Assembly (NCBI GenBank): GCA_964351995.1
Contig: CAYGQE010000006.1
Location: forward strand, 65,045 to 129,044
Direction of reading: 5' to 3'
DNA length: 64,000 bases
DNA from: an uncultured Acidimicrobiaceae bacterium
GTDB taxonomy: Bacteria; Actinomycetota; Acidimicrobiia; Acidimicrobiales; SZUA-35
A model generated the notes under the pieces. It saw only the letters and a program-made list of their open reading frames with translations, had not been told where the DNA came from and did no database searches. The translations under genes were made by a program, and so were the position numbers. This document shows, one piece after another, positions 42,537 through 55,568 of the stretch. Every line of letters begins with the position of its first letter. Positions within the stretch are counted from its first letter, which is position 1.

Positions 42537-43598
42537 TCAGGTGGGTCGCCCCGCACCTGAGGGGCGGGCGGCAGGAACACAGTGGTTGTCCGGACACATG
42601 TCCGGCCACGGCCCACTATCGCCGAGAAAGAGGCGAGGCTTCTCGTTGATCTGTTCTTCGAGGAGCTCTCTCACCATCGTGACGAAGCGAGGGTGTGCGC
42701 CAACCGTCGCCGCCCTGGTCATGCGCATCGACGCGCCCTCGGCGGCCTCGGCCGCTTGGGTGTCGAGGTCGAACATGACCTCCATGTGGTCACTGACGAA
42801 CCCGAGGGGAACCACCACCACATCGTCGGTCGAGCGACCGTGCAGATCGTGCAGGTGGTCGACGATGTCTGGCTCGAGCCAGGGCACCTGCGGGGGCCCG
42901 CTGCGGCTCTGCCACACAAGATCCCAATCGTCGGAGGTCCCAGCCAGGCCGCTGATGATCGACGCTGCTTCTCGAAGTTGATTTTCGTACTCGCTGGTCG
43001 CTGCCATGGAGAGCGGGATCGAATGTGCGGTGAAAACTACTCGAGGTTCGGCGCCATGGGCCTGGCGATGAGCGTCGACAGCCCGGGCCAGCTTCTCAGC
43101 GGCTGGCTCGCAGAAGCCCGGGTGGTTGTAGAACAGGCGAAGCTTCTGGAGTTCGATGTCGGCCCCGGTGACCGCTTCGCCTGCGGCAATCAAGTTCTCG
43201 CGGTACTGACGGCATCCCGAGTAGGAACTGAACGCCGAGGTGACGAACACGAAGACTTTCGTGATGCCGTCGTCGGCCATTTGCTGCACGGTGTCGTCGA
43301 GGTAGGGGGCCCAGTTGCGGTTGCCCCAGTAGACGGGAATCTCGATGTTGTTGGCAGCAAAATCGGCCTCGATGGCCCACTTCAGCTCACGGTTCTGGGC
43401 ATTGATCGGAGATACGCCCTCGAATTGGTCGTATTGCTTGGCCACCTCGGCGAGTCGTTCATCGGGGACGTTGCGGCCCTTGACGACATTGCGCAAGAAC
43501 GGCAGCACGTCGTCGGGTCCCTCTGGCCCCCCGAAGGACAACAGAAGCAGAGCAGTGGTGGGCGTGGTCACGGGGTCGACTCCGGGTTCGTGCGTCAT
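42537..43598 (-). CDS. hemH: Ferrochelatase (coproporphyrin ferrochelatase type)
   Basis: LLLSFGGPEGPDDVLPFLRNV N-terminus and FTAHSIP motifs. Confidence 0.9.
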   Translation of the reverse strand: MTHEPGVDPVTTPTTALLLLSFGGPEGPDDVLPFLRNVVKGRNVPDERLAEVAKQYDQFEGVSPINAQNRELKWAIEADFAANNIEIPVYWGNRNWAPYLDDTVQQMADDGITKVFVFVTSAFSSYSGCRQYRENLIAAGEAVTGADIELQKLRLFYNHPGFCEPAAEKLARAVDAHRQAHGAEPRVVFTAHSIPLSMAATSEYENQLREAASIISGLAGTSDDWDLVWQSRSGPPQVPWLEPDIVDHLHDLHGRSTDDVVVVPLGFVSDHMEVMFDLDTQAAEAAEGASMRMTRAATVGAHPRFVTMVRELLEEQINEKPRLFLGDSGPWPDMCPDNHCVPAARPSGAGRPT

Positions 43599-43668: not shown

Positions 43669-44073
43669 TCAGGAAGCGATCAACGCAGATGCGTCGATGT
43701 GCTCGATGCTGACGATTTCGACGCTGCTCTGGCTGTTGAGTTCAACGTCGACGGCAAGTTGTCGGCGAGCGTTATCTCGGGCTTGGATGACCGAGCGGCG
43801 ACTGGGTGAGCGAGGGGCGTATCCGGCGGCGGCGCGCTCTTCGTCGTTTTCGGCTCCCCAAAAGCCGTGTTCCCGGTTGAGGCGGGCGGTGCGGCGGCAC
43901 GGGAGCATCACGGGGCACGAGAGGCAGTAGCTCTTCGCCAGTGCTTCGCGCTCGACGCGTCGCTCGGGGCGCTCAGCCGATGGCCCGAAGAACACTTCGG
44001 TCAGGCCCTTGCACACTGCCTCGTCTTGCCAACTGAGATCAGTATCTGGGTGGGCGGTGAACTCGGTATCCAT
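43669..44073 (-). CDS. WhiB-family protein with about 55-aa C-terminal extension
   Basis: WQDEAVCKG...FFGP...AKSYCLSCPVMLPC...GFWGAENDEER gives four Cys in C-x29-C-x2-C-x5-C spacing. ATG 44073 is preferred because the N-terminus of the 170-aa ORF is hydrophobic and implausible. Confidence 0.75.
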   Translation of the reverse strand: MDTEFTAHPDTDLSWQDEAVCKGLTEVFFGPSAERPERRVEREALAKSYCLSCPVMLPCRRTARLNREHGFWGAENDEERAAAGYAPRSPSRRSVIQARDNARRQLAVDVELNSQSSVEIVSIEHIDASALIAS

Positions 44074-44104: not shown

Positions 44105-44140
44105 TTTAGCACTAAAGGCAGTTTTAGCACTAAGACCGTG
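44105..44140. repeat. Two direct repeats with 18-bp period (TTTAGCACTAA core) 32-69 nt upstream of the WhiB-like start
   Basis: TTTAGCACTAAaggcagt TTTAGCACTAAgaccgtg. The core is an imperfect palindrome (TTAG ca CTAA) in the most AT-rich patch of the region. Confidence 0.6.
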
Positions 44141-44473: not shown

Positions 44474-45376
44474 CTATTCCCCTTGGCCGCCGGTTGAGGT
44501 GGCCGTACCTTGCTGGCGACGAGTGGCGGCGGCGTCGGCAATCAGCTTGGCTGCGGTTCGACTGTCGCTGTGCCAGAGATCAGCGCCGAGCGAGCGAGCG
44601 TGCTCCTCTGAGCAGATTGCCCCGCCGCCGATTGCAATCGGAATGTCGCCAAAGGCCGCTCGCAGGGCGCCGACGGTGTCAGTGGCTGATGCCTCGTGGT
44701 CGGGGCCGGTCAAGGACAAGGCCACGACGCAGTCGGCGAATCGCGTGCCGGCGGCAATGAAGGACGAGATGTCCGGGGACCCGCCGAGGTCGATGACGGT
44801 CACGCCGAAGGAGCGAATCAGGTCAGCGAACATCGCTGACGGAATCGAGTGAACGTCTCCAGGAGTCGCACCGACGACCACGATTCCTCGGCGACGACCC
44901 GGTGTGGCGAGGTGTGTGCCGAGTCTGCCGATGATGCGATGCGCAACGGCGGACGCCTTGTGCTCACTTGCGATCGAGAGTTCCCCGTCGGCCCACCGCT
45001 GGCCGATCGATTTGAGCGCAGGAGCCAACACATCGAGATGGATGCTGACGGGATCGTCATTCGAGGAAATCGATGCCTCGATCAAACGCCACGCTGCTAC
45101 TTCGTCGCCTGCGATCAGCGCCTCTTCGATGGTCATCGTGTCGTCGAGGTCGGTGACGCGTACTGCGTCGTTCTGGAATTCCGCCAAGTCGGCGGCGCTG
45201 ATCACCCACGAGCCCCGCTGCTTCTCGGCGTAGAGCAGCCCGAGTTTCACGTACCGGTACGCGGTCATGTAATGGACGCCGAGGTGGTCGGCCGCTTCTT
45301 GCAGTGTGAGGTCCCCAGTCGGCACGGCGCACACGCTACGAGATCTGCGTGCGGAGCGATGAACCGGTCGGATCAC
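44474..45376 (-). CDS. CarH/LitR-like regulator: excisionase/MerR-type HTH, W-x9-E-H helical bundle, B12-binding domain (paralog 1)
   Basis: HTH LTLQEAADHLGVHYMTAYRYVKLGLL; QRWADGELSIASEH (W-x9-EH); Rossmann VVVGATPGDVHSIPSAMFADL (DxHxx with Pro in place of Gly). Confidence 0.75.
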   Translation of the reverse strand: MIRPVHRSARRSRSVCAVPTGDLTLQEAADHLGVHYMTAYRYVKLGLLYAEKQRGSWVISAADLAEFQNDAVRVTDLDDTMTIEEALIAGDEVAAWRLIEASISSNDDPVSIHLDVLAPALKSIGQRWADGELSIASEHKASAVAHRIIGRLGTHLATPGRRRGIVVVGATPGDVHSIPSAMFADLIRSFGVTVIDLGGSPDISSFIAAGTRFADCVVALSLTGPDHEASATDTVGALRAAFGDIPIAIGGGAICSEEHARSLGADLWHSDSRTAAKLIADAAATRRQQGTATSTGGQGE

Positions 45377-45444: not shown

Positions 45445-46281
45445 GTGAGACTCGCAACATGGAATCTCTGGTGGAAGTTTGGGCCATGGGAGGCCCGCCA
45501 ACGCCCGATCGCAAGCGAGATCAACCTTGTTGACGCTGACGTCATGTGCCTCCAGGAGGTCTGGGCAGATGCTGATCATGACCAGGCTGAGTTGCTGGCC
45601 GCCTCGTCGGGAAGACATCTCGCCCGCACGACGAATGCCGACGGTATTGCTCATCCCTTCGGGAACGCCGTGCTGAGCCGCTGGCCGATCCAGCAGCATC
45701 ACACGATTGTCCTTCCCGGCAGCGACGGGGAACCAAGCCATCGCTCGGCGCTCTTCTGTGAGATCGACGTACCCGGGGCTACACATCCCTGGTGGGTGGT
45801 CAGTACCCACCTCGAGTGGCGCTATTCGGCGAGCGTTCTTCGTCAGCGCCAACTCGAAGCGATCGTGGCCGAATGTGCGCGAGTCCGAGCGTTGGTCCCA
45901 GACAGCATCGTGGCGATCGGTGGTGATTTCAATGCTGTAGCGGACAGCGACGAGATCCGTCGGCTCACCGGGCTGTCGGTTCCGTACAGCGAGCGTCTCA
46001 TTTTCACCGACGGATGGGCCGCTGTCACTGACGAACCCGGTCACACTTGGAGTCGAAGCAATCCGCATTCCAGCAATGCTCAGTGGCCGCGGCGCCGGGT
46101 CGATGCAGTCTTCGTTTCTTGGCCGCGCCCGAAGCCAACGGGCAACCCCATCGACGCCGCGCTTTTTGGCCTCGATGCGCTCCCGACGGGCGAGGGCGAT
46201 GCGGAGATCGTGCCGTCTGATCACTACGGCGTTGTCGTCGAACTCGATCGACGGACGACTGCTGACATCGAGGCCTCTTGA
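45445..46281 (+). CDS. Endonuclease/exonuclease/phosphatase (EEP) family protein
   Basis: MRLATWNLWW...DADVMCLQEVW and C-terminal SDHYGVVVEL motifs. Confidence 0.8.
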   Translation: MRLATWNLWWKFGPWEARQRPIASEINLVDADVMCLQEVWADADHDQAELLAASSGRHLARTTNADGIAHPFGNAVLSRWPIQQHHTIVLPGSDGEPSHRSALFCEIDVPGATHPWWVVSTHLEWRYSASVLRQRQLEAIVAECARVRALVPDSIVAIGGDFNAVADSDEIRRLTGLSVPYSERLIFTDGWAAVTDEPGHTWSRSNPHSSNAQWPRRRVDAVFVSWPRPKPTGNPIDAALFGLDALPTGEGDAEIVPSDHYGVVVELDRRTTADIEAS

Positions 46282-47207
46282 TGGGGAACGCTCCACCGCC
46301 ACCGCCGTCGGGAGCGCCCGCACCCGGCCCGCCGCCACCGACGCCGGCGATCGTCGAGCACCCGCCGTTGCTGCTCATCTCTGATTGGCTGACCGATACG
46401 ACGAGGACACTTGTCAAGGGGTTTGGCGACTTCTTCGCTGTTCTCACGGTGCTAGCGATCATCAGCACCGCACTGAGTGCGCCGCTGCTTTGGATCAGTT
46501 CCGCTGATGCTGTTCTGACTCGCGACGACGACAACCTCTTCAACGGCATCGAAGGCATGACGGGAACGCACGGACTCATGGTTGCTGGTGGCTTGCTCAT
46601 CTCAGCTGTTGGTCAGGTTCTGCTCTTCACCGCCGCCACCAATCACATCGATCGTTTGCGCTCCGGTGACTCGCCTCGCTGGCAGGAGACGTTGGGCGCA
46701 CTCGTTGCCCGAGGGCCTCGTGTCGTCGGCGTCGTGGCGCAGGTGGTGTTCGTTGCGTTCGTGATTCTGTTGATCAGTGGTGTGCTCGGCGGCATCGGCC
46801 TTGGCGGAATTGCGATCGCCATTGCGTTCGCTTTGATCGTGCTGCTTTGGGTGCGGGCGGCTGTTGCGTCGACCCATGCTGCGCTTGGCGGGGCCGGAGG
46901 GAGTCTTCGCCACAGTCTTGCCTGGACGAAGGGACTGACCCTTCCGCTTCTGGGCCGACACATCGTCTTGGTGACGATTTGCGTCGGTTTGCTGTTGATT
47001 GGTTCAATCGTGTCCGCCCCCTTTCAGAGCTTGTCCGGGGCGGCGGCGTCGACCGAGGGCGACCTGGTTCTCCGCGACGTCATCGGGAGCAGCCTTTCTG
47101 CCTTTGTCGCAGTGCAGTTCATCAACGCTCTCGTCTCCGGGTTCATCGCAGCGTTGTGGGCGGCCGCCATGCTCTCGCTTTATCGAGGCGAAGCCGCTGA
47201 GCGCTAG
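46281..47207 (+). CDS. Polytopic membrane protein with Pro-rich N-terminus
   Basis: PPPPPSGAPAPGPPPPTP followed by about 6 hydrophobic helices. The ATG overlaps the EEP gene stop (TGATG). Confidence 0.55.
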   Translation: MGNAPPPPPSGAPAPGPPPPTPAIVEHPPLLLISDWLTDTTRTLVKGFGDFFAVLTVLAIISTALSAPLLWISSADAVLTRDDDNLFNGIEGMTGTHGLMVAGGLLISAVGQVLLFTAATNHIDRLRSGDSPRWQETLGALVARGPRVVGVVAQVVFVAFVILLISGVLGGIGLGGIAIAIAFALIVLLWVRAAVASTHAALGGAGGSLRHSLAWTKGLTLPLLGRHIVLVTICVGLLLIGSIVSAPFQSLSGAAASTEGDLVLRDVIGSSLSAFVAVQFINALVSGFIAALWAAAMLSLYRGEAAER

Positions 47208-47221
47208 ATAGTGTCGCCCGG

Positions 47222-49261
47222 ATGGCGGGGGACACCGGAGTCGACCAACAGCAACTCGATCAGGGGCAGCTGGATCGTGCCGCATCGTGCCTCGAGGCAA
47301 TGAGCAATCGGGCAACCAAGATCCACGAGGCTGCACAGACGCGAGCCGAGCAGGAGAAGAGCGTCGATGCTCGGATCGCAGCAGCCAAGATGGAAGAGCG
47401 TCGCGCTGCGATCGATGCCGGCAGCGGACCGTTGTGTTTTGGCCGGATCGATGAAGACGGTCCAAGTCGCAGCCAACGTGACACCTGGTATGTCGGGCGT
47501 CGCCACATCGAGGACGCCGAGGGGAACCCCGTCGTCGTCGACTGGCGGGCACCGGTGTCAGCGCCGTTCTATCGAGCCACTTCGGTCGACCCCTGCGGTC
47601 TGGTCAGGCGTCGACGCTTCAGTATCGATGAGGGCCACATCACCAACGTGTTCGACGAGGATCTCACCGACCCGGACGGAGCGAGTGGCGGCCTGCCCGA
47701 TCCGCTGCTCGCTGAACTCGATCGTGGACGCTCGGGGCAGATGCGAGACATCGTGGCCACCATCGCCGGCGAGCAGGACGAGGTGATCCGCTCCGGCATC
47801 AATGAGCTGCTGATCGTGCAGGGAGGTCCGGGAACGGGCAAGACCGCCGTTGGCCTGCACCGTGCCGCGTATCTGCTGTTTGCCCACCGGGATCACTTCG
47901 CTGACCATCAAGTGCTGGTGATCGGGCCGAACCCGGTCTTCCTCCGCTACATCGCTGAAGTGCTGCCGTCGCTTGGCGAGCGGTCGGTGGCGCAAACCAC
48001 GGTCACTGGGTTGTTGGTAGCGAAGTATCGAGTGCGGTCTGAAGACCCAGCAACCGTCGTGCAGCTCAAGAGCGACGAGCGGATGGCCGAGGTCATTCGT
48101 CATTCGATGCGGCGCCGGATCGTTGCTCCCGTCGATGGTCTCGAACTGCGTTCGGGCGTGTCGAAGGTGCGGTTCGATCGTGACGCCGTCGATCAAATGA
48201 TGCAGCGTGCGCTCGACCGCAATCTCGCCTTGAACACGGCGAGGGACGTGTTCCGCAGCATCGTGTTGCAGGAGGCCTGGCGGCAGTTCGAAGCCCGACC
48301 GGGATCAGATCCCGGTCACCAGCCGGCATTTGTTGCAGCGATTCGTTCTGATCCCGGGTTCAAGAAGGACGTCGACCGGATGTGGCCAGCGTTCTCTCCG
48401 CCGGCGGTGATTCGAGAACTGTTGGGCTCCAAGACCAAACGCCGGGCTGCCGCTGACAGCCTCCTCGACCCAGCCGAACAAGCCTTGTTGCATCGGCCGT
48501 CGGCAAAGAAGGCCAACGAGGAACTCTGGTCGGCCGCTGATCTACCGCTGTTGGATGAGGCAACTGATCTTGCCGTCGGCGTACTGCCGGCGTACGGCCA
48601 TGTCGTGGTCGATGAGGCGCAAGACCACGGGGCCATGGCATTGCGAATGCTTGGGCGCCGAGCGAAGAACCACTCGATGACGGTGCTCGGCGACCTCGCA
48701 CAAGCAACTGCTCCCGGGGCAATCGAAGCATGGGACGAAGCAGCTCGCCATCTGTGCGGTGATCCCGACGGAGCGGTCGTGCGAGAACTCACCGTTGGCT
48801 ACCGCGTGCCGGCTGCCATTCTCGATGTGGCCAACCAGCTCCTTCGTGAGGCGGCGCCCTCGGTGACGCCCGCTCGGTCCATCCGGCCCGGTGGCGAGCC
48901 CCCGAGTCACTTCGATTTCAGCGACGACGAACAGATGGTCGCCGCGGTCGGCGACGCCATTGCGGCAACGACAGATCAACAGGGGCGAGCCTCGATTGCC
49001 GTGATCGCGCCTGTATCCCACCATGATCTGTTGCTCGCAGAAGTCCCTGGTCTGGTCCGCTTCGGAACGGGAACAGCGGTGAACTTGCCTGGTACCGAAG
49101 CCATTGCTCTGCTTGATCCAGATCAGGCCAAAGGGCTCGAGTTCGACGCCGTCGTTGTGGTCGACCCTCCAGCGATCCGTTCGGCCCCGAACGGATCGCG
49201 GCAGCTCTACGTGGCCATGACGCGAGCGGTGCAGACTCTCGCCATGGTCGAACCAACCTGA
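47222..49261 (+). CDS. HelD/HelR-like UvrD-superfamily helicase (RNA-polymerase-associated type)
   Basis: N-terminal FGRIDEDG...WYVGRRHIED..G.PVVVDWRAPVSAPFYRAT, Walker A GGPGTGKT, VVDEAQD, and C-terminal GLEFDAVVVV. Confidence 0.8.
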   Translation: MAGDTGVDQQQLDQGQLDRAASCLEAMSNRATKIHEAAQTRAEQEKSVDARIAAAKMEERRAAIDAGSGPLCFGRIDEDGPSRSQRDTWYVGRRHIEDAEGNPVVVDWRAPVSAPFYRATSVDPCGLVRRRRFSIDEGHITNVFDEDLTDPDGASGGLPDPLLAELDRGRSGQMRDIVATIAGEQDEVIRSGINELLIVQGGPGTGKTAVGLHRAAYLLFAHRDHFADHQVLVIGPNPVFLRYIAEVLPSLGERSVAQTTVTGLLVAKYRVRSEDPATVVQLKSDERMAEVIRHSMRRRIVAPVDGLELRSGVSKVRFDRDAVDQMMQRALDRNLALNTARDVFRSIVLQEAWRQFEARPGSDPGHQPAFVAAIRSDPGFKKDVDRMWPAFSPPAVIRELLGSKTKRRAAADSLLDPAEQALLHRPSAKKANEELWSAADLPLLDEATDLAVGVLPAYGHVVVDEAQDHGAMALRMLGRRAKNHSMTVLGDLAQATAPGAIEAWDEAARHLCGDPDGAVVRELTVGYRVPAAILDVANQLLREAAPSVTPARSIRPGGEPPSHFDFSDDEQMVAAVGDAIAATTDQQGRASIAVIAPVSHHDLLLAEVPGLVRFGTGTAVNLPGTEAIALLDPDQAKGLEFDAVVVVDPPAIRSAPNGSRQLYVAMTRAVQTLAMVEPT

Positions 49262-49337: not shown

Positions 49338-51359
49338 TCAGACGTCGAGGGCTTCGGAGTCAATGAGCGTGCTGTTGTTGACGATGTAGTCGCGACGGGT
49401 GGCGACGTCGCTACCCATCAGCACCTCGAAGAGCTTTGCTGCTTCGATGGCGTGCTCGGCATCAGCCATGGTGAGTCGCTTGAGCACACGAGTGCTGGGG
49501 TCGAGCGTGGTGTCCCGGAGCTCGTTGACGTTCATCTCGCCGAGCCCCTTGAATCGCTGCCATCGTTTCTCGGCCGAGAAGCCGTGCTCGGCGTGGAGCT
49601 GTTCCCGTTGCTCATCGCTGTAGGCGTAAATCTGCTCACCCCGGTGCTTCACCGCAAACAGCGGTGGCTGTGCGGCGTAGACCATGCCCGCCTCGAGCAA
49701 CGGCCGCATCTGGTGGAAGAGCAACGTGAGGAGCAAACAGCGAATGTGCGAACCATCGACGTCGGCGTCGCACAGGATGATGATGCGGCCGTATCGACAC
49801 GATGCGAGATCGAAGTCTTTGCCGGAGCCGGCACCGATCGAGGTGATCAGGGCTTGGGCCTCGGCGTTGTCGACAACTTGTTTCAGCGTGGCCTTGCCGG
49901 CGTTGACGACCTTGCCCCGCAGCGGAAGCACCGCCATCATCTCGGAGTTGCGACCCTGCTTGGCCGGGCCGGCAGCGGAGTTTCCTTCCACGATGAGAAG
50001 CTCGGAATCGGGCCCATGCAAGCGGCAGTCGGCCAGCTTGTCCGGCATGCCATTGGAGGAAAGGCTCGATGCCTTCCGGCGCGCTTCAAGCTGCTGCTTC
50101 GACAGCACACGGTTCAAAATGGCCTGCGCCATCTTGTCTCGCATGGCGTTGACCTGGTTCTTTTTGCCGCCGCCATCGATCCAGTTGGCCAACCCGGCTC
50201 GGGTGGCTTCGTTCACGATCTTCTGGATCGAGGGTGTGCCGAGCTCTTGCTTGGTCTGGCCCTTGAACTGCGGCTCGGCGAACGTGACCTTGACCGCAGC
50301 TACGAGGCCCTCTTGAGCATCGCTGGGTAGTGCTTTGTCGTTGCCGTCCTTGGCGAGCTTCTTGAGCTTCTTCATGTCGGCAAGCAGGTGCTCGTTGGCG
50401 ATCTTGGTGAGCGCTCGCTCGAATCCTTGGACGTGAGTGCCACCTTCAGAGGTGGGGATCGTGTTGACGAAGCTGACGATGGTCGAGTCGAACCCCTTGA
50501 CCCATCGAGCCGCAATGTCGACCGAACACGGTCGAGCGACGGTGGTCATCTTGCCATCGACGGGCACTCGCTCTTCGAAGCTGTCCTCGGCCCGGATGGT
50601 GATGATGTCGGTGACGTTCTCACCGACCGACAGGTAGTCGACGTAATCGGACAGGCCGCCGGCAGCCACGAACTCTTCAGGCTCGCGGCCAGGGCCGCGC
50701 TTGTCGGTCAGCTTGATGTGCAGACCGGGAACCAAGAAGCAGACACGGGCAACATGGTCGCGAATGCGGTCGTACTCGATGCGGGCGTCGGGATCGAAGA
50801 TGTCGAGATCTGGCCAGTAGCGGACTCGGGTGCCGGTGCGTGACGGCGGAATCGACTTGACCTTGGTCAACTTCGAGCCGGGCTTGAACGTACCATTTTT
50901 CAGGTAGTTGCCAGGCAGTCGCTCGTTGAACACCAGACGCCAGGTGGCGCCGTCACGGTCGACTTCGGCGACGACCTTGGACGCCAATGCGTTGACCACC
51001 GAAGCGCCGACACCGTGCAGGCCTCCCGAGGCGCTGTAGGCGCCAGAGCCGAACTTGCCGCCGGCATGGAGTTCTGTGAAGACGACTTCGAGCGCCGTGC
51101 GACCATCTGGCTTCTTGCCGACAGGGATGCCGCGACCGTCGTCGGACACCTCGACCGAACCGTCCTTGTGGAGCGTGACTTCGATGTGGGAGGCAAAGCC
51201 AGCGGCCGCCTCGTCGACGGAGTTGTCGATGATCTCCCACACAAGGTGGTGGAGGCCATCGTTGCCGGTGCCGCCGATGTACATACCTGGCCGCTTGCGG
51301 ACCGCGTCGAGGCCCTCGAGGACCTGGATCTTTGATGCGTCGTACTGGTCTTTTGCCAT
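49338..51359 (-). CDS. Type IIA DNA topoisomerase subunit B (ParE/GyrB family)
   Basis: VLEGLDAVRKRPGMYIG, GGLHGVGASVVNALS, the Toprim EGNSAGG, and PLRGKVVN motifs. Confidence 0.9.
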   Translation of the reverse strand: MAKDQYDASKIQVLEGLDAVRKRPGMYIGGTGNDGLHHLVWEIIDNSVDEAAAGFASHIEVTLHKDGSVEVSDDGRGIPVGKKPDGRTALEVVFTELHAGGKFGSGAYSASGGLHGVGASVVNALASKVVAEVDRDGATWRLVFNERLPGNYLKNGTFKPGSKLTKVKSIPPSRTGTRVRYWPDLDIFDPDARIEYDRIRDHVARVCFLVPGLHIKLTDKRGPGREPEEFVAAGGLSDYVDYLSVGENVTDIITIRAEDSFEERVPVDGKMTTVARPCSVDIAARWVKGFDSTIVSFVNTIPTSEGGTHVQGFERALTKIANEHLLADMKKLKKLAKDGNDKALPSDAQEGLVAAVKVTFAEPQFKGQTKQELGTPSIQKIVNEATRAGLANWIDGGGKKNQVNAMRDKMAQAILNRVLSKQQLEARRKASSLSSNGMPDKLADCRLHGPDSELLIVEGNSAAGPAKQGRNSEMMAVLPLRGKVVNAGKATLKQVVDNAEAQALITSIGAGSGKDFDLASCRYGRIIILCDADVDGSHIRCLLLTLLFHQMRPLLEAGMVYAAQPPLFAVKHRGEQIYAYSDEQREQLHAEHGFSAEKRWQRFKGLGEMNVNELRDTTLDPSTRVLKRLTMADAEHAIEAAKLFEVLMGSDVATRRDYIVNNSTLIDSEALDV

Positions 51360-51415
51360 GGGGGAGAAAGGTGCTGCGTTCGTGTTCGGCGGGCGGTGGT
51401 GTTGCTGGGCGCGGG

Positions 51416-53851
51416 CTACCAGCGAAGCGAGCCAATGGCGAGGATACGCCTTGGGGCTGAGCTGCTCGGGCCATCCCGTCGAGTTGGGCGAATGGCCACA
51501 GGCTCGGGGGTGTTGTCGTGCTTGGTTGGGGCGTCGGGCTGGCCGACGAGGGCAACGATGCGTTCGGGATTGCCGATCCAGGCAAAGTCGAGACGGCTCT
51601 CGTCTTTGAACTTGGTGATGCGAACACCGCCGGCGCCACGACCCTTGCTGGGCACCTCGGCGGCGTCGGTCGACTTGACCGTGCCGAGGTCGGTGACGGT
51701 GATGATCACGGTGTCGCCGGTGATGGGACCGGCGGCCAACACCCTGGCGTTGCCCTTCACACCAACGCCTGCGACACCCTTGGCGGCAGCGCCCTGCACG
51801 CTGATGCCTTCGGCGGGTGTGCGGAGGGCCTGAGCGTCGTTGGTGATGAACACGACGTCGAGGGACGGGTTGATCAGCTTGGCGGATACTACGGTGTCAC
51901 GGTCGGCCAGCTTCATGATTGGCTTGCCATCGCTGACTTCGGTCAGCACCGAGCGCTCGATTCGCTTGGCTGCGCCACCTGCAGTGGCCACGAGTAGTTG
52001 GTCGCTCGAATCGTCGGCGGATGCACTGACGATGGCGATGATGTTCTCGCCTCGCTCGGCTCCGAACGTCTCGGATGCATCGCGGCCTCGGCTACGGCCG
52101 CCGACTTCGGCCAGATCGAGCGCTCGGCGACGCAGCAATCGGCCCTTGTCTGTGATGGCCAACACGTCGCTGGCCAGGCTTCCAACGGCAACGGTATCGA
52201 TGACGTCGTGGCGGCCTGGGGTGTAACTCCGGGAGGTGCCGAGTGGCTCACGGCCGACGACACCGGAGGCCGAGAGGCTGATGAGGCAGGGCTCGTCGGC
52301 GGTGGCGAGATCGATCTCGGGAGCGGCTTCGTTGAGCGTCTTGATCTCGTCCGGGGAGATGATGCGGGTGCGACGAGGCGTCGGGTACTCCTTGACCAAC
52401 TCGCCGAGTTCGCGAATGACGATGGTCCGGCGCCGCTGCTCCGACGCAAGAATCTTCTCGAGATCGTCAATCTCTTCGAGCAGCAGTGTTCGCTCCTCGA
52501 CGAGGTCGGTGTAGGCAAGTGCGGTCAGGCGACGGAGTCGCAGTTCGAGAATTGCTTCGGCCTGGATCTCGCTGAGGCTGAGGGCTTCCATCAAGCCGGT
52601 GCGAGCGGCTTCGGAGTTGGCAGCGTTGCGAATGATCGACACGACGAGGTCGATGTTGTCGATGGCGATCAGGTAGCCCTCGACCCTGTGCAGACGTTCT
52701 TGCCGCTGACGGAGCCGGTACTCGGATCGTTTCACGACCATGTCGAGGCGGTGGTCGATGTAGTACTGGCAGAGGTCGTAGAGGCCGAGGGTGGTGGGCA
52801 CGCCATCGACGAGGACGACGTTGTTGATGCCGAAGGTCTCTTCGAGCGGTGTGAGTCGGTAGAGCTTCTGGAGAAGTACCGCCGGGTCGACGCCGGTCTT
52901 GCATTCGATCACCAGGCGCAAGCCAGAGTTGTGATCCGACAGGTTCTTCATGTCGGAGATCCCTGAGACCTTGCCGGCGATCACCAACTCCTTGACCTTG
53001 GCCATGACCCGCTCGACACCGATCATGTAGGGCAGTTCGGTGATGACGATGCCCTTGCGTGCTCGGGTGATGTCGACGATCTCGGCAGTGGCCCGGAGAC
53101 GAACCGAACCTCGACCGTGTTCGTACGCATCGTTGATGCCATCGTCGATCATGGTGCCGCCGCTCGGGAAGTCGGGGCCGGGCACGAGCTCACGCAGTTG
53201 CTCGAGTGTGGGCTTCGGTCGACGTTGACTCATCACGAGCTTGATGGCTTCGTAGATCTCGCCGAGGTTGTGCGGAGCCATGTTGGTGGCCATGCCGACG
53301 GCGATGCCCGTGGTGCCGTTGACCAACAGGTTTGGCAGCAGTGCAGGGAGGTATTGCGGCTCGACGTTCTCGCCGTCGTAGGTCGGGCGGAATTCGACGG
53401 TCTCTTCGTCGATCTCGGCCAGCAGGTGCAGTGCGGCGTCGCTGAGCCGGGCCTCGGTGTAACGCATCGCAGCTGGGGGGTCATCGAGGCTGCCGAAGTT
53501 GCCTTGGGGGTGGATCAGCGTGATCGACCGGGCGAAGTCTTGGCCCATGCGGACCAGGGTGTCGTAGATCGCACTGTCGCCGTGGGGATGGAACTTGCCC
53601 ATGACCTCGCCGACGACGCCGGCGCACTTGCGGTGGGGGCGGTCGGGAAAGAGGCGCATCTCGCGCATGGCGAACAAAATGCGCCGCTGAACGGGCTTGA
53701 GGCCGTCACGCACGTCAGGGATGGCACGCGAGGTGATGACAGACAGCGAGTACGCGAGAAACGACTCGCCGAGCTCTTCAGAGACCGGGACGTCGATGAC
53801 TTCTCGAGCAAAGGGCAGCAATTCACCCTGTGATGACATGGTTCGTTCCAT
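51416..53851 (-). CDS. Type IIA DNA topoisomerase subunit A lacking a GyrA box (ParC-like)
   Basis: [17 protein letters not shown], and the active-site AAMRYTE. No QRRGGKG-type GyrA box appears at the start of the C-terminal domain (the region reads [17 protein letters not shown]). Confidence 0.9.
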
Positions 53852-53853
53852 TT

Positions 53854-53925
53854 CTTCCGGCTGGCCGAGATCTTCTGGCTGGCCGAGTGCTTCACGTTGG
53901 CAGAGTGCTTCACGTTGGCAGAGTG
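53854..53925. repeat. Four tandem 18-bp direct repeats between the B12-regulator stop and the topoisomerase start
   Basis: Plus strand: CTTCCGGCTGGCCGAGAT CTTCTGGCTGGCCGAGTG CTTCACGTTGGCAGAGTG CTTCACGTTGGCAGAGTG. The last two units are identical. The array ends 3 nt from the ATG at 53851. Confidence 0.85.
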
Positions 53926-53953
53926 ATACTAGCCAGCTCCGAACGTCTGTTCG

Positions 53954-54799
53954 TCACGCCGGGCGGGTGTGTGATGGTGCGAGCTTGTCGAATTGGTCGA
54001 GCAGACCTTCGACATCTGGCGCCCAGATGGTGGCACCGGCAGCCTCGGCTTCCACCCGGCCGGGCACGCCTGCCCCGCCGAGTGCAACGTGAGCGTTTGG
54101 TCGGCGAGCACGAATCGCCGTGATGGTGTCCTTGGCCTGAGCGAGACTCGCACTGGTGGTCGAAGAGATGACGACACCGATGAACGGGCGGTCAGCCGAG
54201 CCCATGTCCATCACTTCGAGGAATGACTCGGCAGGAGTGTCGGCCCCGAGGTCTGTGACCTCGAAGTGGCGGCCCCGGAGGAGGTCGGCGATGATCGCGG
54301 TCGTCAGCGCGTGGGCGTCACCGGAGACCAAGCCGACCACGATGTGGCCGCGGCCAGTACCGCGGCGATGAAAACGAGGTCCGAGTCGGGCCGTGATCCG
54401 AGACGCAATGGTGGTCGCCTGGTGTTCGTCGAACACTTCGATCTCGTTGTTGGCCCACCGTTGACCGATCGAGCGCATGGCAGGGATGAGCATCCGGAGG
54501 TGGATCTCGGCTGGCTCGGCACCGGACGTCAGCGCTTGGGAGACAACGGCCCAGGCGCCAGGCTCGTCAGCAACGAGGAGTCGGTCTTCGAGCTGCGCAG
54601 CGGCTCGAGTGCGTACGCCCTCGCTGGGCTTTGAGTCGTTGCCGTTGGCAAGTGCTTCGATGTCTGCCGAGTCGACAAACCATTGACCGCCTTCTTTGGT
54701 GGCCGCCAAGCGCCCCGTTCGCACATAGCGGTACACGGTCATGTAGTGCAGTCCGAGGTTCTCGGCTGCAGCCCGAAGGCTGATCGAATCCGCCGGCAT
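53954..54799 (-). CDS. CarH/LitR-like regulator: excisionase/MerR-type HTH, W-x9-E-H helical bundle, B12-binding domain (paralog 2)
   Basis: HTH ISLRAAAENLGLHYMTVYRYVRTGRL; QRWANNEIEVFDEH (W-x9-EH); Rossmann IVVGLVSGDAHALTTAIIADL. Confidence 0.75.
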   Translation of the reverse strand: MPADSISLRAAAENLGLHYMTVYRYVRTGRLAATKEGGQWFVDSADIEALANGNDSKPSEGVRTRAAAQLEDRLLVADEPGAWAVVSQALTSGAEPAEIHLRMLIPAMRSIGQRWANNEIEVFDEHQATTIASRITARLGPRFHRRGTGRGHIVVGLVSGDAHALTTAIIADLLRGRHFEVTDLGADTPAESFLEVMDMGSADRPFIGVVISSTTSASLAQAKDTITAIRARRPNAHVALGGAGVPGRVEAEAAGATIWAPDVEGLLDQFDKLAPSHTRPA

Positions 54800-54884
54800 C
54801 AGGGGATGATCTCATACTGGCGACGCATGCTGTGGGATTCACCGGGAAGGATTCATGAGCCCGGTGGGCCCGTCGTCGAAGGGA

Positions 54885-55121
54885 TCAGCGGCGACGGCGA
54901 CGACGGTGGGCGTCAATCTTGCGCGCTGACTTGATGACACCCTCGAGGCGCTCGGTGAGTTCGGCCGGCTCTTCTCGGGCTTCGGTATCGAGTTCAGGAG
55001 CCAAGGCTTCGAGGATGGCGCTGACGCTCACGCCCTGTTCGGCGGCGAATCCGTGCCACTGATCGTGGGCGTCATCGCTGACATAGGCATGCAGGGCCTT
55101 GCGGCCATTGTCTTGAGACAT
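54885..55121 (-). CDS. Small hypothetical protein, possible ribbon-helix-helix fold with poly-Arg tail
   Basis: ALHAYVSDDAHDQWHGFAAEQGVSVSAILEAL resembles a strand-helix-helix unit. The protein ends in HRRRRRR. Confidence 0.4.
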   Translation of the reverse strand: MSQDNGRKALHAYVSDDAHDQWHGFAAEQGVSVSAILEALAPELDTEAREEPAELTERLEGVIKSARKIDAHRRRRRR

Positions 55122-55229
55122 GGTGTCGTTCTCTCTGTTCGCATCCTTGCGGATATCACTCTTCGCGGCGGTGCCAATACTTCCGGCGTCATGTTTGTAT
55201 CACGATCTTGCACCGGAGCGTTGCAACTC

Positions 55230-55568
55230 TCAGCCCAGTCTCTTGAGCATTCTTCCCAGGGGGCCTGGTTCTGTCACCGATGCCATTTTGTTCGCTTGCG
55301 ACGGATCGACCCTCGCCACGGCGGCTGCGACTTCTTTGGCCGAGGGATTCACCATGAACTCGTCGCCTACGCGAACTGTCGGAACGGTCTCGTTGCCGTT
55401 GGCGACCGACCGTACGAACGCTGCGGCGTCGGGGTCTTCCCAGATGTTGTGCTTCTCGAGCGGGATCTCGATGCCCTTGAGCGACCGATCGAGACTCATG
55501 CAGAAGGGGCAGCCGGGTCGCCAGTAGAACTGGATGGCTTCGAGGGTTTGGTGGTTCGTGCTGCTCAT
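55230..55568 (-). CDS. Glutaredoxin/mycoredoxin-like thiol-disulfide oxidoreductase
   Basis: IQFYWRPGCPFCMSL (CPFC active site) and TVPTVRVGDEFMVNP. Confidence 0.75.
   Translation of the reverse strand: MSSTNHQTLEAIQFYWRPGCPFCMSLDRSLKGIEIPLEKHNIWEDPDAAAFVRSVANGNETVPTVRVGDEFMVNPSAKEVAAAVARVDPSQANKMASVTEPGPLGRMLKRLG

Follow-up and report, generated by a model that had tools for sequence, protein, structure and literature searches.

The DNA analysed here, called the window, is a 64-kb stretch from an uncultured Acidimicrobiia (Actinomycetota) bacterium, in which the gene of a B12-binding type of regulator lies directly ahead of two genes for a type IIA topoisomerase. Four open reading frames (ORFs) of the minus strand make up the locus, and all of them are present in the ORF list at the positions given by the initial annotation. 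These are a 78-aa ORF (54885-55121), encoding a small protein with a C-terminal poly-Arg tail; REG1 (53954-54799), a 281-aa protein in which an HTH_17 domain (winged and excisionase/MerR-like) is followed by a four-helix bundle of the B12-binding_2 type and then by a B12-binding domain with Rossmann fold; TOPA (51416-53851), an 811-aa ParC-like A subunit of type IIA topoisomerase; and TOPB (49338-51359), a 673-aa ParE-like B subunit which starts 56 nt downstream of TOPA. The order of A subunit before B subunit is thus borne out. The spacer between REG1 and TOPA is 102 nt long and has three features. The perfect palindrome CGAACAGACGTTCG (53940-53953) stands directly after the REG1 stop codon and is predicted to be a LexA SOS box that covers the -35 region; the hexamer TAGTAT (53926-53931, minus strand), 8 nt downstream of this box, is the predicted -10 element of a putative promoter; and a tandem repeat of 18 bp x 4.0 (53854-53925, minus strand; Tandem Repeats Finder score 74) occupies the predicted 5′ untranslated region (5′UTR) of TOPA. 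It had been proposed that REG1 is a CarH-type regulator which places the topoisomerase under the control of light or B12 through this spacer and its repeats. Here we surveyed the proteins, the spacer, the regulator family and the gene order in related genomes with this proposal in view.

The TOPA protein carries the DNA_topoisoIV domain (PF00521, 484 bits) and the DNA_gyraseA_C domain, with the catalytic AMRYTE at residues 128-133. The GyrA box QRRGGKG has no match in TOPA even when 3 mismatches are allowed, and it was found in 0 of 120 TOPA homologs at one mismatch or fewer. The protein passes the NCBIfam model NF004044 'DNA topoisomerase (ATP-hydrolyzing)' (738 against a cutoff of 654) and fails both gyrA equivalogs (TIGR01063, 716 against 877; NF004043, 729 against 902), and the earlier description of an A subunit without GyrA box, ParC-like rather than canonical gyrase, is upheld. 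The parC equivalogs also remain below cutoff, and for this reason TOPA is called 'ParC-like' and is not assigned to an equivalog. TOPB has the full GyrB/ParE set of domains (HATPase_c, DNA_gyraseB, Toprim and DNA_gyraseB_C), and all gyrB and parE equivalogs score below cutoff on it. The homologs of TOPA are named in their sources as 'DNA topoisomerase 4 subunit A', 'DNA topoisomerase (ATP-hydrolyzing)' or 'DNA gyrase subunit A', and the identity of TOPA across many Acidimicrobiia is 65-70%. The N-terminus of the orthologs is conserved as M(S/A)SQGELLPF; therefore the true start of TOPA is probably the second ATG at 53839 and not the first in-frame ATG at 53851. No second type IIA topoisomerase gene was found in the window. 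As judged from domains and motifs, TOPA and TOPB are the ParC/ParE-type (GyrA-box-less) type IIA topoisomerase of this lineage, with a predicted activity, and represent an ordinary actinobacterial topo IV-type enzyme which is unusual only in its A-then-B operon and its predicted SOS control. ParC/ParE (topo IV) of Streptomyces is likewise a gyrase-derived second enzyme of type IIA, with an A subunit lacking the GyrA box. Streptomyces parC and parE are separate loci, whereas here both subunits are encoded in one A-then-B operon, with the predicted box over the -35 region ahead of the A subunit. TopoNM of Mycobacterium smegmatis may be another enzyme suited to comparison.

The spacer was analyzed for elements which are conserved among orthologous loci. 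Its layout is kept as TGA-CGAACAaaCGTTCG-(8 nt)-TAGTAT, and the -10 hexamer persists as TAGTAT or TAGAAT in close orthologs. The box keeps its position in 8 distinct loci with REG1 and recurs with 1 mismatch in a locus without REG1 (L089), which gives 9 of the 16 distinct TOPA loci. In the window, CGAACAGACGTTCG is the sole perfect copy of CGAAC-N4-GTTCG, and in the 1.43 Mb of fetched Acidimicrobiia DNA there are 19 perfect copies against 1.4 expected from shuffles. A relaxed SOS pattern, CGAACNNNNGNNCG, was also searched in the window and was discarded as uninformative, its occurrence being at chance level (8 found against 8.1 expected). The perfect palindrome lies directly upstream of ImuA′ in two loci (L044 and L061; NF058630, cutoff 65, with 122.9 and 94.9 bits) and, in two others, ahead of the start of DnaE2 homology (L064 and L026; NF004225, >1340 bits), and ImuB-like genes adjoin these sites.

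These genes are informative about the identity of the palindrome. In Mycobacterium tuberculosis the LexA consensus is TCGAAC(N4)GTTCGA, imuA′ and dnaE2 are among the strongest LexA peaks in chromatin immunoprecipitation (ChIP), and lexA, dnaE2, imuA and imuB have been called the core LexA regulon (PMC3381160). For Streptomyces venezuelae, tCGAAC-N4-GNNCGa is given as the consensus, and the LexA targets found by ChIP sequencing and RNA sequencing include parE, which is induced 3.8-fold by mitomycin C (PMC9380542). Both consensuses come from other actinobacteria, and CGAACAGACGTTCG matches both of them. Since the palindrome also precedes imuA′ and dnaE2 in related genomes, it would represent the LexA SOS box of this lineage; this calibration rests on imuA′/dnaE2, the fetched DNA being without recA or lexA. 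The imuA′-imuB-dnaE2 genes, which in related Acidimicrobiia share the palindromic SOS box with TOPA, differ from it in function (translesion synthesis) and serve here as the calibrator that identifies the motif. The spacer palindrome is predicted to be a LexA SOS box lying over the -35 element of an own promoter of TOPA-TOPB, both the binding of LexA and the position of the promoter being putative. A box of the same type (tCGAAC-N4-G..CGa) is present upstream of S. venezuelae parE, which is the only one of the two topo IV genes reported there as a LexA target (PMC9380542).

The repeat array which the initial annotation had noticed between regulator and topoisomerase is real. Its copy number in orthologs ranges from 0 to 4 with differing sequence; other units or copy numbers are seen in L085, L084 and L088, and the array is absent from L081, L082 and L086. 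It was therefore rejected as an operator, because its copy number and sequence vary in close orthologs and three of them have none. The repeat unit resembles the Shine-Dalgarno-proximal segment of TOPA (GGCCAGCCAGAAG / GGAAGGAATGG), and the repeat in the 5′UTR may tune translation or may merely reflect replication slippage. For the spacer, a riboswitch, another structured RNA and a terminator were likewise considered and rejected, with no Rfam match in the window, a fold z of -0.88 and no predicted terminator on the minus strand.

The domains of REG1 were searched with profile models, and HTH_17 (38.4 bits), B12-binding_2 (48.9 bits) and B12-binding (47.7 bits) all score above their Pfam gathering scores, which are 23 bits for B12-binding_2 (PF02607) and 32.1 bits for B12-binding (PF02310). 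In an alignment of 19 family sequences with 42-82% identity, the residues W115, E125, H126, H163, G185 and P189 are invariant. Of the two motifs that had been read from the translation, the W-x9-E-H residues (W115-x9-E125-H126) and the axial H163 of the Rossmann GDAH are thus confirmed in 19 of 19 sequences, and the W-x9-EH residues and the axial His are kept in every paralog clade. The signature of light-responsive B12 domains has been given as GxxW, EH, GxxH and GxxxP (PMC11796333), and REG1 contains it as G112-x-x-W115, E125-H126, G160-x-x-H163 and G185-x-x-x-P189. The AlphaFold model of REG1 has a predicted local distance difference test score (pLDDT) of 90.5. Its top fold matches are the B12 domains of photocobilins (8J2W/8J2X, 31% identity, Foldseek E 4e-15), followed by full-length TtCarH (5C8D/E/F, Foldseek E 1e-12, TM ~0.5-0.6), and the full-length alignments with TtCarH take in the DNA-binding domain. 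No MerR model was found in REG1 by Pfam at E<=0.1, the NCBIfam model 'excise' scores 28.1 against a cutoff of 28.8, and the CarH equivalog NF052513 gives 55.9 bits against a cutoff of 400 and covers the B12 module only (residues 67-266).

The earlier assignment of REG1 to the CarH/LitR type with an excisionase/MerR helix-turn-helix (HTH) therefore holds for the B12 module and an HTH_17 domain, and fails at the MerR model and at the CarH equivalog cutoff. By its sequence, REG1 is a predicted CarH-like transcription factor of the adenosylcobalamin photoreceptor type. It resembles CarH/LitR but is no member in the strict sense, because its HTH is HTH_17 and not MerR, the equivalog is widely missed and the predicted operator is palindromic. 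The same three-part layout is found in Thermus thermophilus CarH (5C8D/5C8E), Myxococcus CarH and Streptomyces LitR, which share with REG1 the W-x9-EH cap motif on the adenosyl group, the lower axial His and the GxxW/EH/GxxH/GxxxP residues, and like CarH/LitR most members of the REG1 family neighbour photolyase and photo-oxidative-stress genes. In contrast to CarH, the DNA-binding domain of REG1 scores as HTH_17/excisionase, and the predicted operator of the family is a palindrome of 12 bp which occurs singly or as two copies 18 bp apart, whereas CarH operators are tandem 11-bp direct repeats. They further differ in that several REG paralogs exist per genome, each with distinct neighbours. No carotenoid genes were found near REG1. 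The closest solved B12 domains are those of the photocobilins of Saccharothrix syringae (8J2W/8J2X) and of an Acidimicrobiaceae member (8J2Y), with a profile E of 3e-31 and 31% identity; they are actinobacterial and light-responsive, and their W-x9-EH region is as in REG1. Photocobilins have a C-terminal biliverdin-binding or GGDEF output module without a DNA-binding domain, whereas REG1 has an N-terminal HTH and nothing past the Rossmann domain.

More than 700 homologs of REG1 have the same three-domain layout, and those which are named belong nearly all to Acidimicrobiia. The genome scan for the family returned 80 loci, with a topoisomerase downstream in just 4 of them, and the metagenome scan with REG1 returned one locus only. 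The most common neighbour clusters, counted by loci, are SDR (37), CFA-synthase-like methyltransferase (22), FAD amine oxidase (21), DUF1365-like (19) and DNA photolyase (15), which we take to be a typical photo-oxidative-stress gene set. A neighbour-joining tree of 96 family genes splits cleanly by genomic context: the topoisomerase-adjacent REG1 clade is monophyletic with 13 sequences, and the further clades are that of REG2-whiB, that of an Nfu-like gene with imuA′-imuB-dnaE2 (9 loci) and large photolyase/photo-oxidative clades. All paralog clades share the recognition helix HYMT[VA]YRYVRtGrL. The literature search on the HTH_17-B12 architecture found nothing relevant, and this Acidimicrobiia family is large and uncharacterised, with several paralogs per genome.

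The members of the imuA′-adjacent clade (L025, L026, L044, L054, L058, L060, L061, L064 and L076; for example L044:10001-15200) lie between the Nfu-like gene and an SOS-box imuA′-imuB-dnaE2 mutagenesis cassette, and like REG1 they have no family operator nearby. Two of about six REG clades are thus placed directly upstream of SOS-box promoters and on their strand, a coincidence which is unexplained.

As the recognition helix is shared across the paralog clades, the flanks of all 96 family genes were searched jointly for enriched k-mers as candidates for the family operator. The motif TTTAG[TC][GA]CTAAA (TTTAGYRCTAAA k-mers) is enriched upstream of family genes (p ~1e-14), lies 20-130 nt upstream of them in the photolyase/photo-oxidative clades and is doubled, with copies 18 bp apart, in orthologous REG2-whiB spacers. 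Its position weight matrix (PWM) finds 99 sites of at least 16 bits in 1.49 Mb and just 16 more between 8 and 16 bits. The sites are located upstream of REG genes (30), whiB (21, in 13 loci), the amine oxidase which heads the DUF1365/CFA-synthase cluster (18), SDR (5) and photolyase (4). From this co-localisation the proteins of the HTH_17-B12 family are predicted to bind TTTAGYRCTAAA; no report on the motif was found in the literature.

The same motif is absent around the topoisomerase. It was found upstream of 0 of 17 TOPA starts and not upstream of imuA, imuB or dnaE2, nor does it occur upstream of REG1 itself in the loci of the topoisomerase-adjacent clade. In the stretch from -700 to +1400 around REG1, or around the 78-aa ORF in loci that lack REG1, no PWM score reaches 4 bits in any of the 17 topoisomerase loci, whereas true sites score 16 bits or more. 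A TATCAC/GTGATA sequence, which is the core of an operator variant, is present at the -10 region of TOPA and upstream of the 78-aa ORF and was rejected as an operator because it scores <0 bits and is not kept in L001 or L083.

The only operator matches in the window at <=2 mismatches are two copies of TTTAGYRCTAAA (with 0 and 1 mismatch) at 44105-44134, placed 18 bp apart and ~32-61 nt upstream of the likely start of a WhiB-like gene. This gene (43669-44073, minus strand) lies downstream of REG2 and shows the Cys-rich WhiB-like pattern in its translation; its start is likely the ATG at 44073, the mechanical ORF reaching to 44181, and Pfam Whib is called for its orthologs in L085, L086 and L087. 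REG2 (44474-45376, minus strand; homology at 44564-45325 by tblastn) is a second HTH_17-B12 paralog, 36% identical to REG1, with the motifs WADGELSIASEH and GDVH. A ferrochelatase gene (42537-43598) follows REG2 and the whiB-like gene, and the REG2-whiB pair is kept in L083, L085, L086, L087, L002 and L010. The operators between REG2 and whiB predict a putative light- or B12-controlled regulator of the WhiB family.

The gene order around REG1 was thereafter compared among related genomes. Four loci (L089-L092) were fetched through TOPA homologs rather than through REG1. One of them (L092) carries REG1, and the other three have the glutaredoxin gene, the 78-aa ORF, TOPA, TOPB and the opposite-strand UvrD-like and exo/endo-phosphatase genes without REG1. 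In the REG1-less L089, GGAACGCACGTTCG and then CTACTATAG stand ahead of TOPA; therefore the SOS box goes with the topoisomerase and not with REG1. The REG1-less loci are nested among the REG1-bearing ones in the TOPA tree, which indicates that the arrangement is old and that REG1 has been lost at least twice, and the REG1 and TOPA trees are broadly congruent. A recent insertion of REG1 was rejected, as REG1-bearing loci occur throughout the TOPA tree and the REG1-less ones look like losses. The conserved gene order extends far beyond these genes: ABC-F, GDSL lipase, DUF3097, GGDEF-EAL, HEPN, SDR, M50 peptidase and AI-2E transporter genes are followed by glutaredoxin, the 78-aa ORF, REG1, TOPA and TOPB, then on the opposite strand by the UvrD-like helicase and the exo/endo-phosphatase, and finally by the REG2, whiB and ferrochelatase genes. 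This is a block of housekeeping character which is conserved and has been inherited vertically, and because the whole of it is equally syntenic, the adjacency of REG1 and TOPA alone carries little weight. The adjacency is kept in 13 distinct loci and is old, but it is part of a syntenic block, and three of the four loci fetched by TOPA are without REG1.

The conserved element of the spacer is a predicted SOS box of the LexA type with a -10 hexamer rather than a site of REG1, the family operator is absent from 17 of 17 loci, three related genomes keep the block without REG1, and the repeat array is not conserved; the proposed control of the topoisomerase by light or B12 is unsupported. We consider it fairly probable that the ParC/ParE-type operon is SOS-controlled from its own promoter and that REG1 acts elsewhere, being a neighbour by synteny. 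TOPA and TOPB would be transcribed from a promoter within the spacer, LexA would occlude this promoter and DNA damage would derepress it, as for S. venezuelae parE, and the 18-bp repeats would lie in the 5′UTR of TOPA. The REG-family proteins would bind TTTAGTGCTAAA, and the regulon of the family would consist of their own genes, whiB, the amine-oxidase/DUF1365/CFA-synthase cluster, SDR and photolyase, which resembles a photoprotection regulon. As there is no family operator at REG1 or TOPA, REG1 most likely acts in trans at TTTAGYRCTAAA operators elsewhere, for example at the promoter between REG2 and whiB, at a distance of 9 kb; the place of REG1 ahead of the topoisomerase would reflect synteny and not control.

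Several observations weigh against this reading, and some of them concern the box. A single perfect box per 64 kb is not significant alone, at least one being present in 16 of 100 shuffles, and the box is missing in 7 of the 16 distinct TOPA loci (L002, L010, L017, L087, L090, L091 and L092), which are the more divergent ones; LexA control is not universal for the topoisomerase operon. These points would suit a case in which the neighbours are functionally unrelated, the palindrome is non-functional or weak and the topoisomerase is a constitutive housekeeping decatenase, and the 65-70% identity of TOPA is as expected of an essential enzyme. However, 8 distinct loci keep the box as a perfect palindrome in DNA that is non-coding, although the 5′UTR next to it diverges freely, the spacing between the box and the -10 hexamer is constant, L089 has a copy of its own, and parE of S. 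venezuelae is known to be LexA-bound and LexA-regulated (PMC9380542). A purely constitutive topoisomerase is in our view unlikely.

The remaining points against SOS control with an unconnected REG1 concern the regulator itself. All 13 members of the REG1 clade keep the REG1-TOPA arrangement on the same strand, loci with REG1 are spread over the entire TOPA tree (with identities as low as 62% for TOPA and 38-44% for REG1), and the arrangement is, as far as the trees indicate, ancient and vertically inherited in one orthologous clade of REG1. Between REG1 and TOPA the prediction gave no terminator on the minus strand, no stable hairpin is present in the spacer, and in L010 ~17 nt separate the stop codon of REG1 from the start of TOPA; co-transcription of REG1 and TOPA is therefore possible. 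A second REG clade is also placed directly upstream of an SOS-box operon (imuA′-imuB-dnaE2), and the operator is assigned to the regulators by co-localisation only. CarH/LitR genes often head the operons which are under their control. All this would fit a REG1 which adds a light or B12 input to the topoisomerase, either by read-through with LexA as a second gate or through a non-canonical site in the spacer. Against it, no family operator exists from -700 to +1400 of REG1 in any locus of the topoisomerase-adjacent clade, not even upstream of REG1, so that there is no evidence for a light-regulated transcription of REG1; paralogs which do have the operator in their neighbourhood carry an identical DNA-recognition helix; the operon is kept in three genomes without REG1; an extra gene of ~870 nt separates REG1 from TOPA in L017; and synteny extends over the whole block. 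We regard such an input as quite improbable. The broader notion that REG1 and the imuA′-adjacent paralogs add light (or cobalamin) input to LexA-controlled damage genes, which might work by read-through transcription or by an interplay with LexA at the abutting box, is doubtful and we would give it only a small chance.

It is highly improbable that CGAAC-N4-GTTCG is not a LexA site but the operator of REG1 and of the imuA′-adjacent REG clade, directly controlling topoisomerase and mutagenesis cassette, for although it lies immediately 3′ of the REG genes in both clades (4-118 nt past the tblastn-aligned end, 13 loci) and neither clade has a TTTAGYRCTAAA operator nearby, the motif is also found ahead of dnaE2 and NUDIX genes which lie several kb away from the nearest REG gene, precedes TOPA in the REG1-less L089 and fits the LexA consensus that experiments have defined in actinobacteria, and the clades tied to the other motif have an identical recognition helix.

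The 78-aa ORF has 218 homologs of 65-100% identity, which are found in Acidimicrobiales only and are all unnamed, or 'hypothetical' wherever the source names them. Their alignment shows an invariant core HAY..AH..W..F..EQG.SVS..LEALA plus RRRR, with the tail RRRRRR. The label 'RHH-like' (ribbon-helix-helix) given to this protein by the initial annotation could not be confirmed: all Pfam domains are below cutoff (RHH_5 E=0.043, ParD E=0.079, DUF6364 E=0.0068), the AlphaFold model of the monomer (pLDDT 82) is all-helical with a low-confidence N-terminus, and it has no fold match in PDB at E<1. An N-terminal strand may form only in a dimer. In the examined loci the 78-aa ORF follows glutaredoxin and precedes the topoisomerase operon, or REG1, at a short distance, and it is also present upstream of TOPA where REG1 is absent (L089, L090 and L091). 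It belongs with the glutaredoxin/topoisomerase block and has no specific tie to REG1, and the topoisomerase may have in it a small partner that binds nucleic acid.

Two further conserved non-coding stretches were observed in this part of the locus. The first (55122-55235), upstream of the 78-aa ORF, reads AGATCGTGATACAAACATGACGCCGGAAGTA..GGCACCGCCGC and also ..GATCGTGATACAAAC..CACCGCCGC.., and its ACCGCCGCA persists in distant relatives. The second (54800-54884), upstream of REG1, reads GTGAATCCCAC..GGTATGAGA, also read as GTGAATCCCAC..GGTATG. Neither of them was matched to a regulator, and they match neither the SOS box nor the family operator; they are likely promoters or leader elements.

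Three genes of the plus strand, which are convergent with TOPB and are kept in the block, encode a UvrD-like helicase (47222-49261), a membrane protein (46278-47207) and a nuclease of the exo/endo-phosphatase family (45445-46281). They lend the neighbourhood a flavour of DNA metabolism, and no SOS box was found ahead of them. The tRNA scan returned zero tRNAs. In one related locus (L083:11154-15409, on a 1.35-Mb contig carrying P0029) the topoisomerase genes are called as fragments, which look like assembly frameshifts rather than pseudogenes.

A control of type IIA topoisomerase by B12 or light would have been new, but the evidence points elsewhere, and the idea should not be carried forward as it was stated. 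What is new is a widespread CarH-like family of Acidimicrobiia with a non-MerR (HTH_17) domain, a sharply defined predicted operator and a predicted regulon. The predicted SOS-inducible ParC/ParE operon of one Acidimicrobiia lineage extends a single precedent, the parE gene of S. venezuelae. It is unexpected that two paralog clades of the regulator stand ahead of SOS-box operons. If a light input to LexA genes were true, it would amount to an anticipatory, light-gated damage tolerance, including a type IIA topoisomerase, in sun-exposed Acidimicrobiia. Acidimicrobiia are abundant in sunlit waters, and a coupling of light sensing with DNA damage would be ecologically relevant for them.

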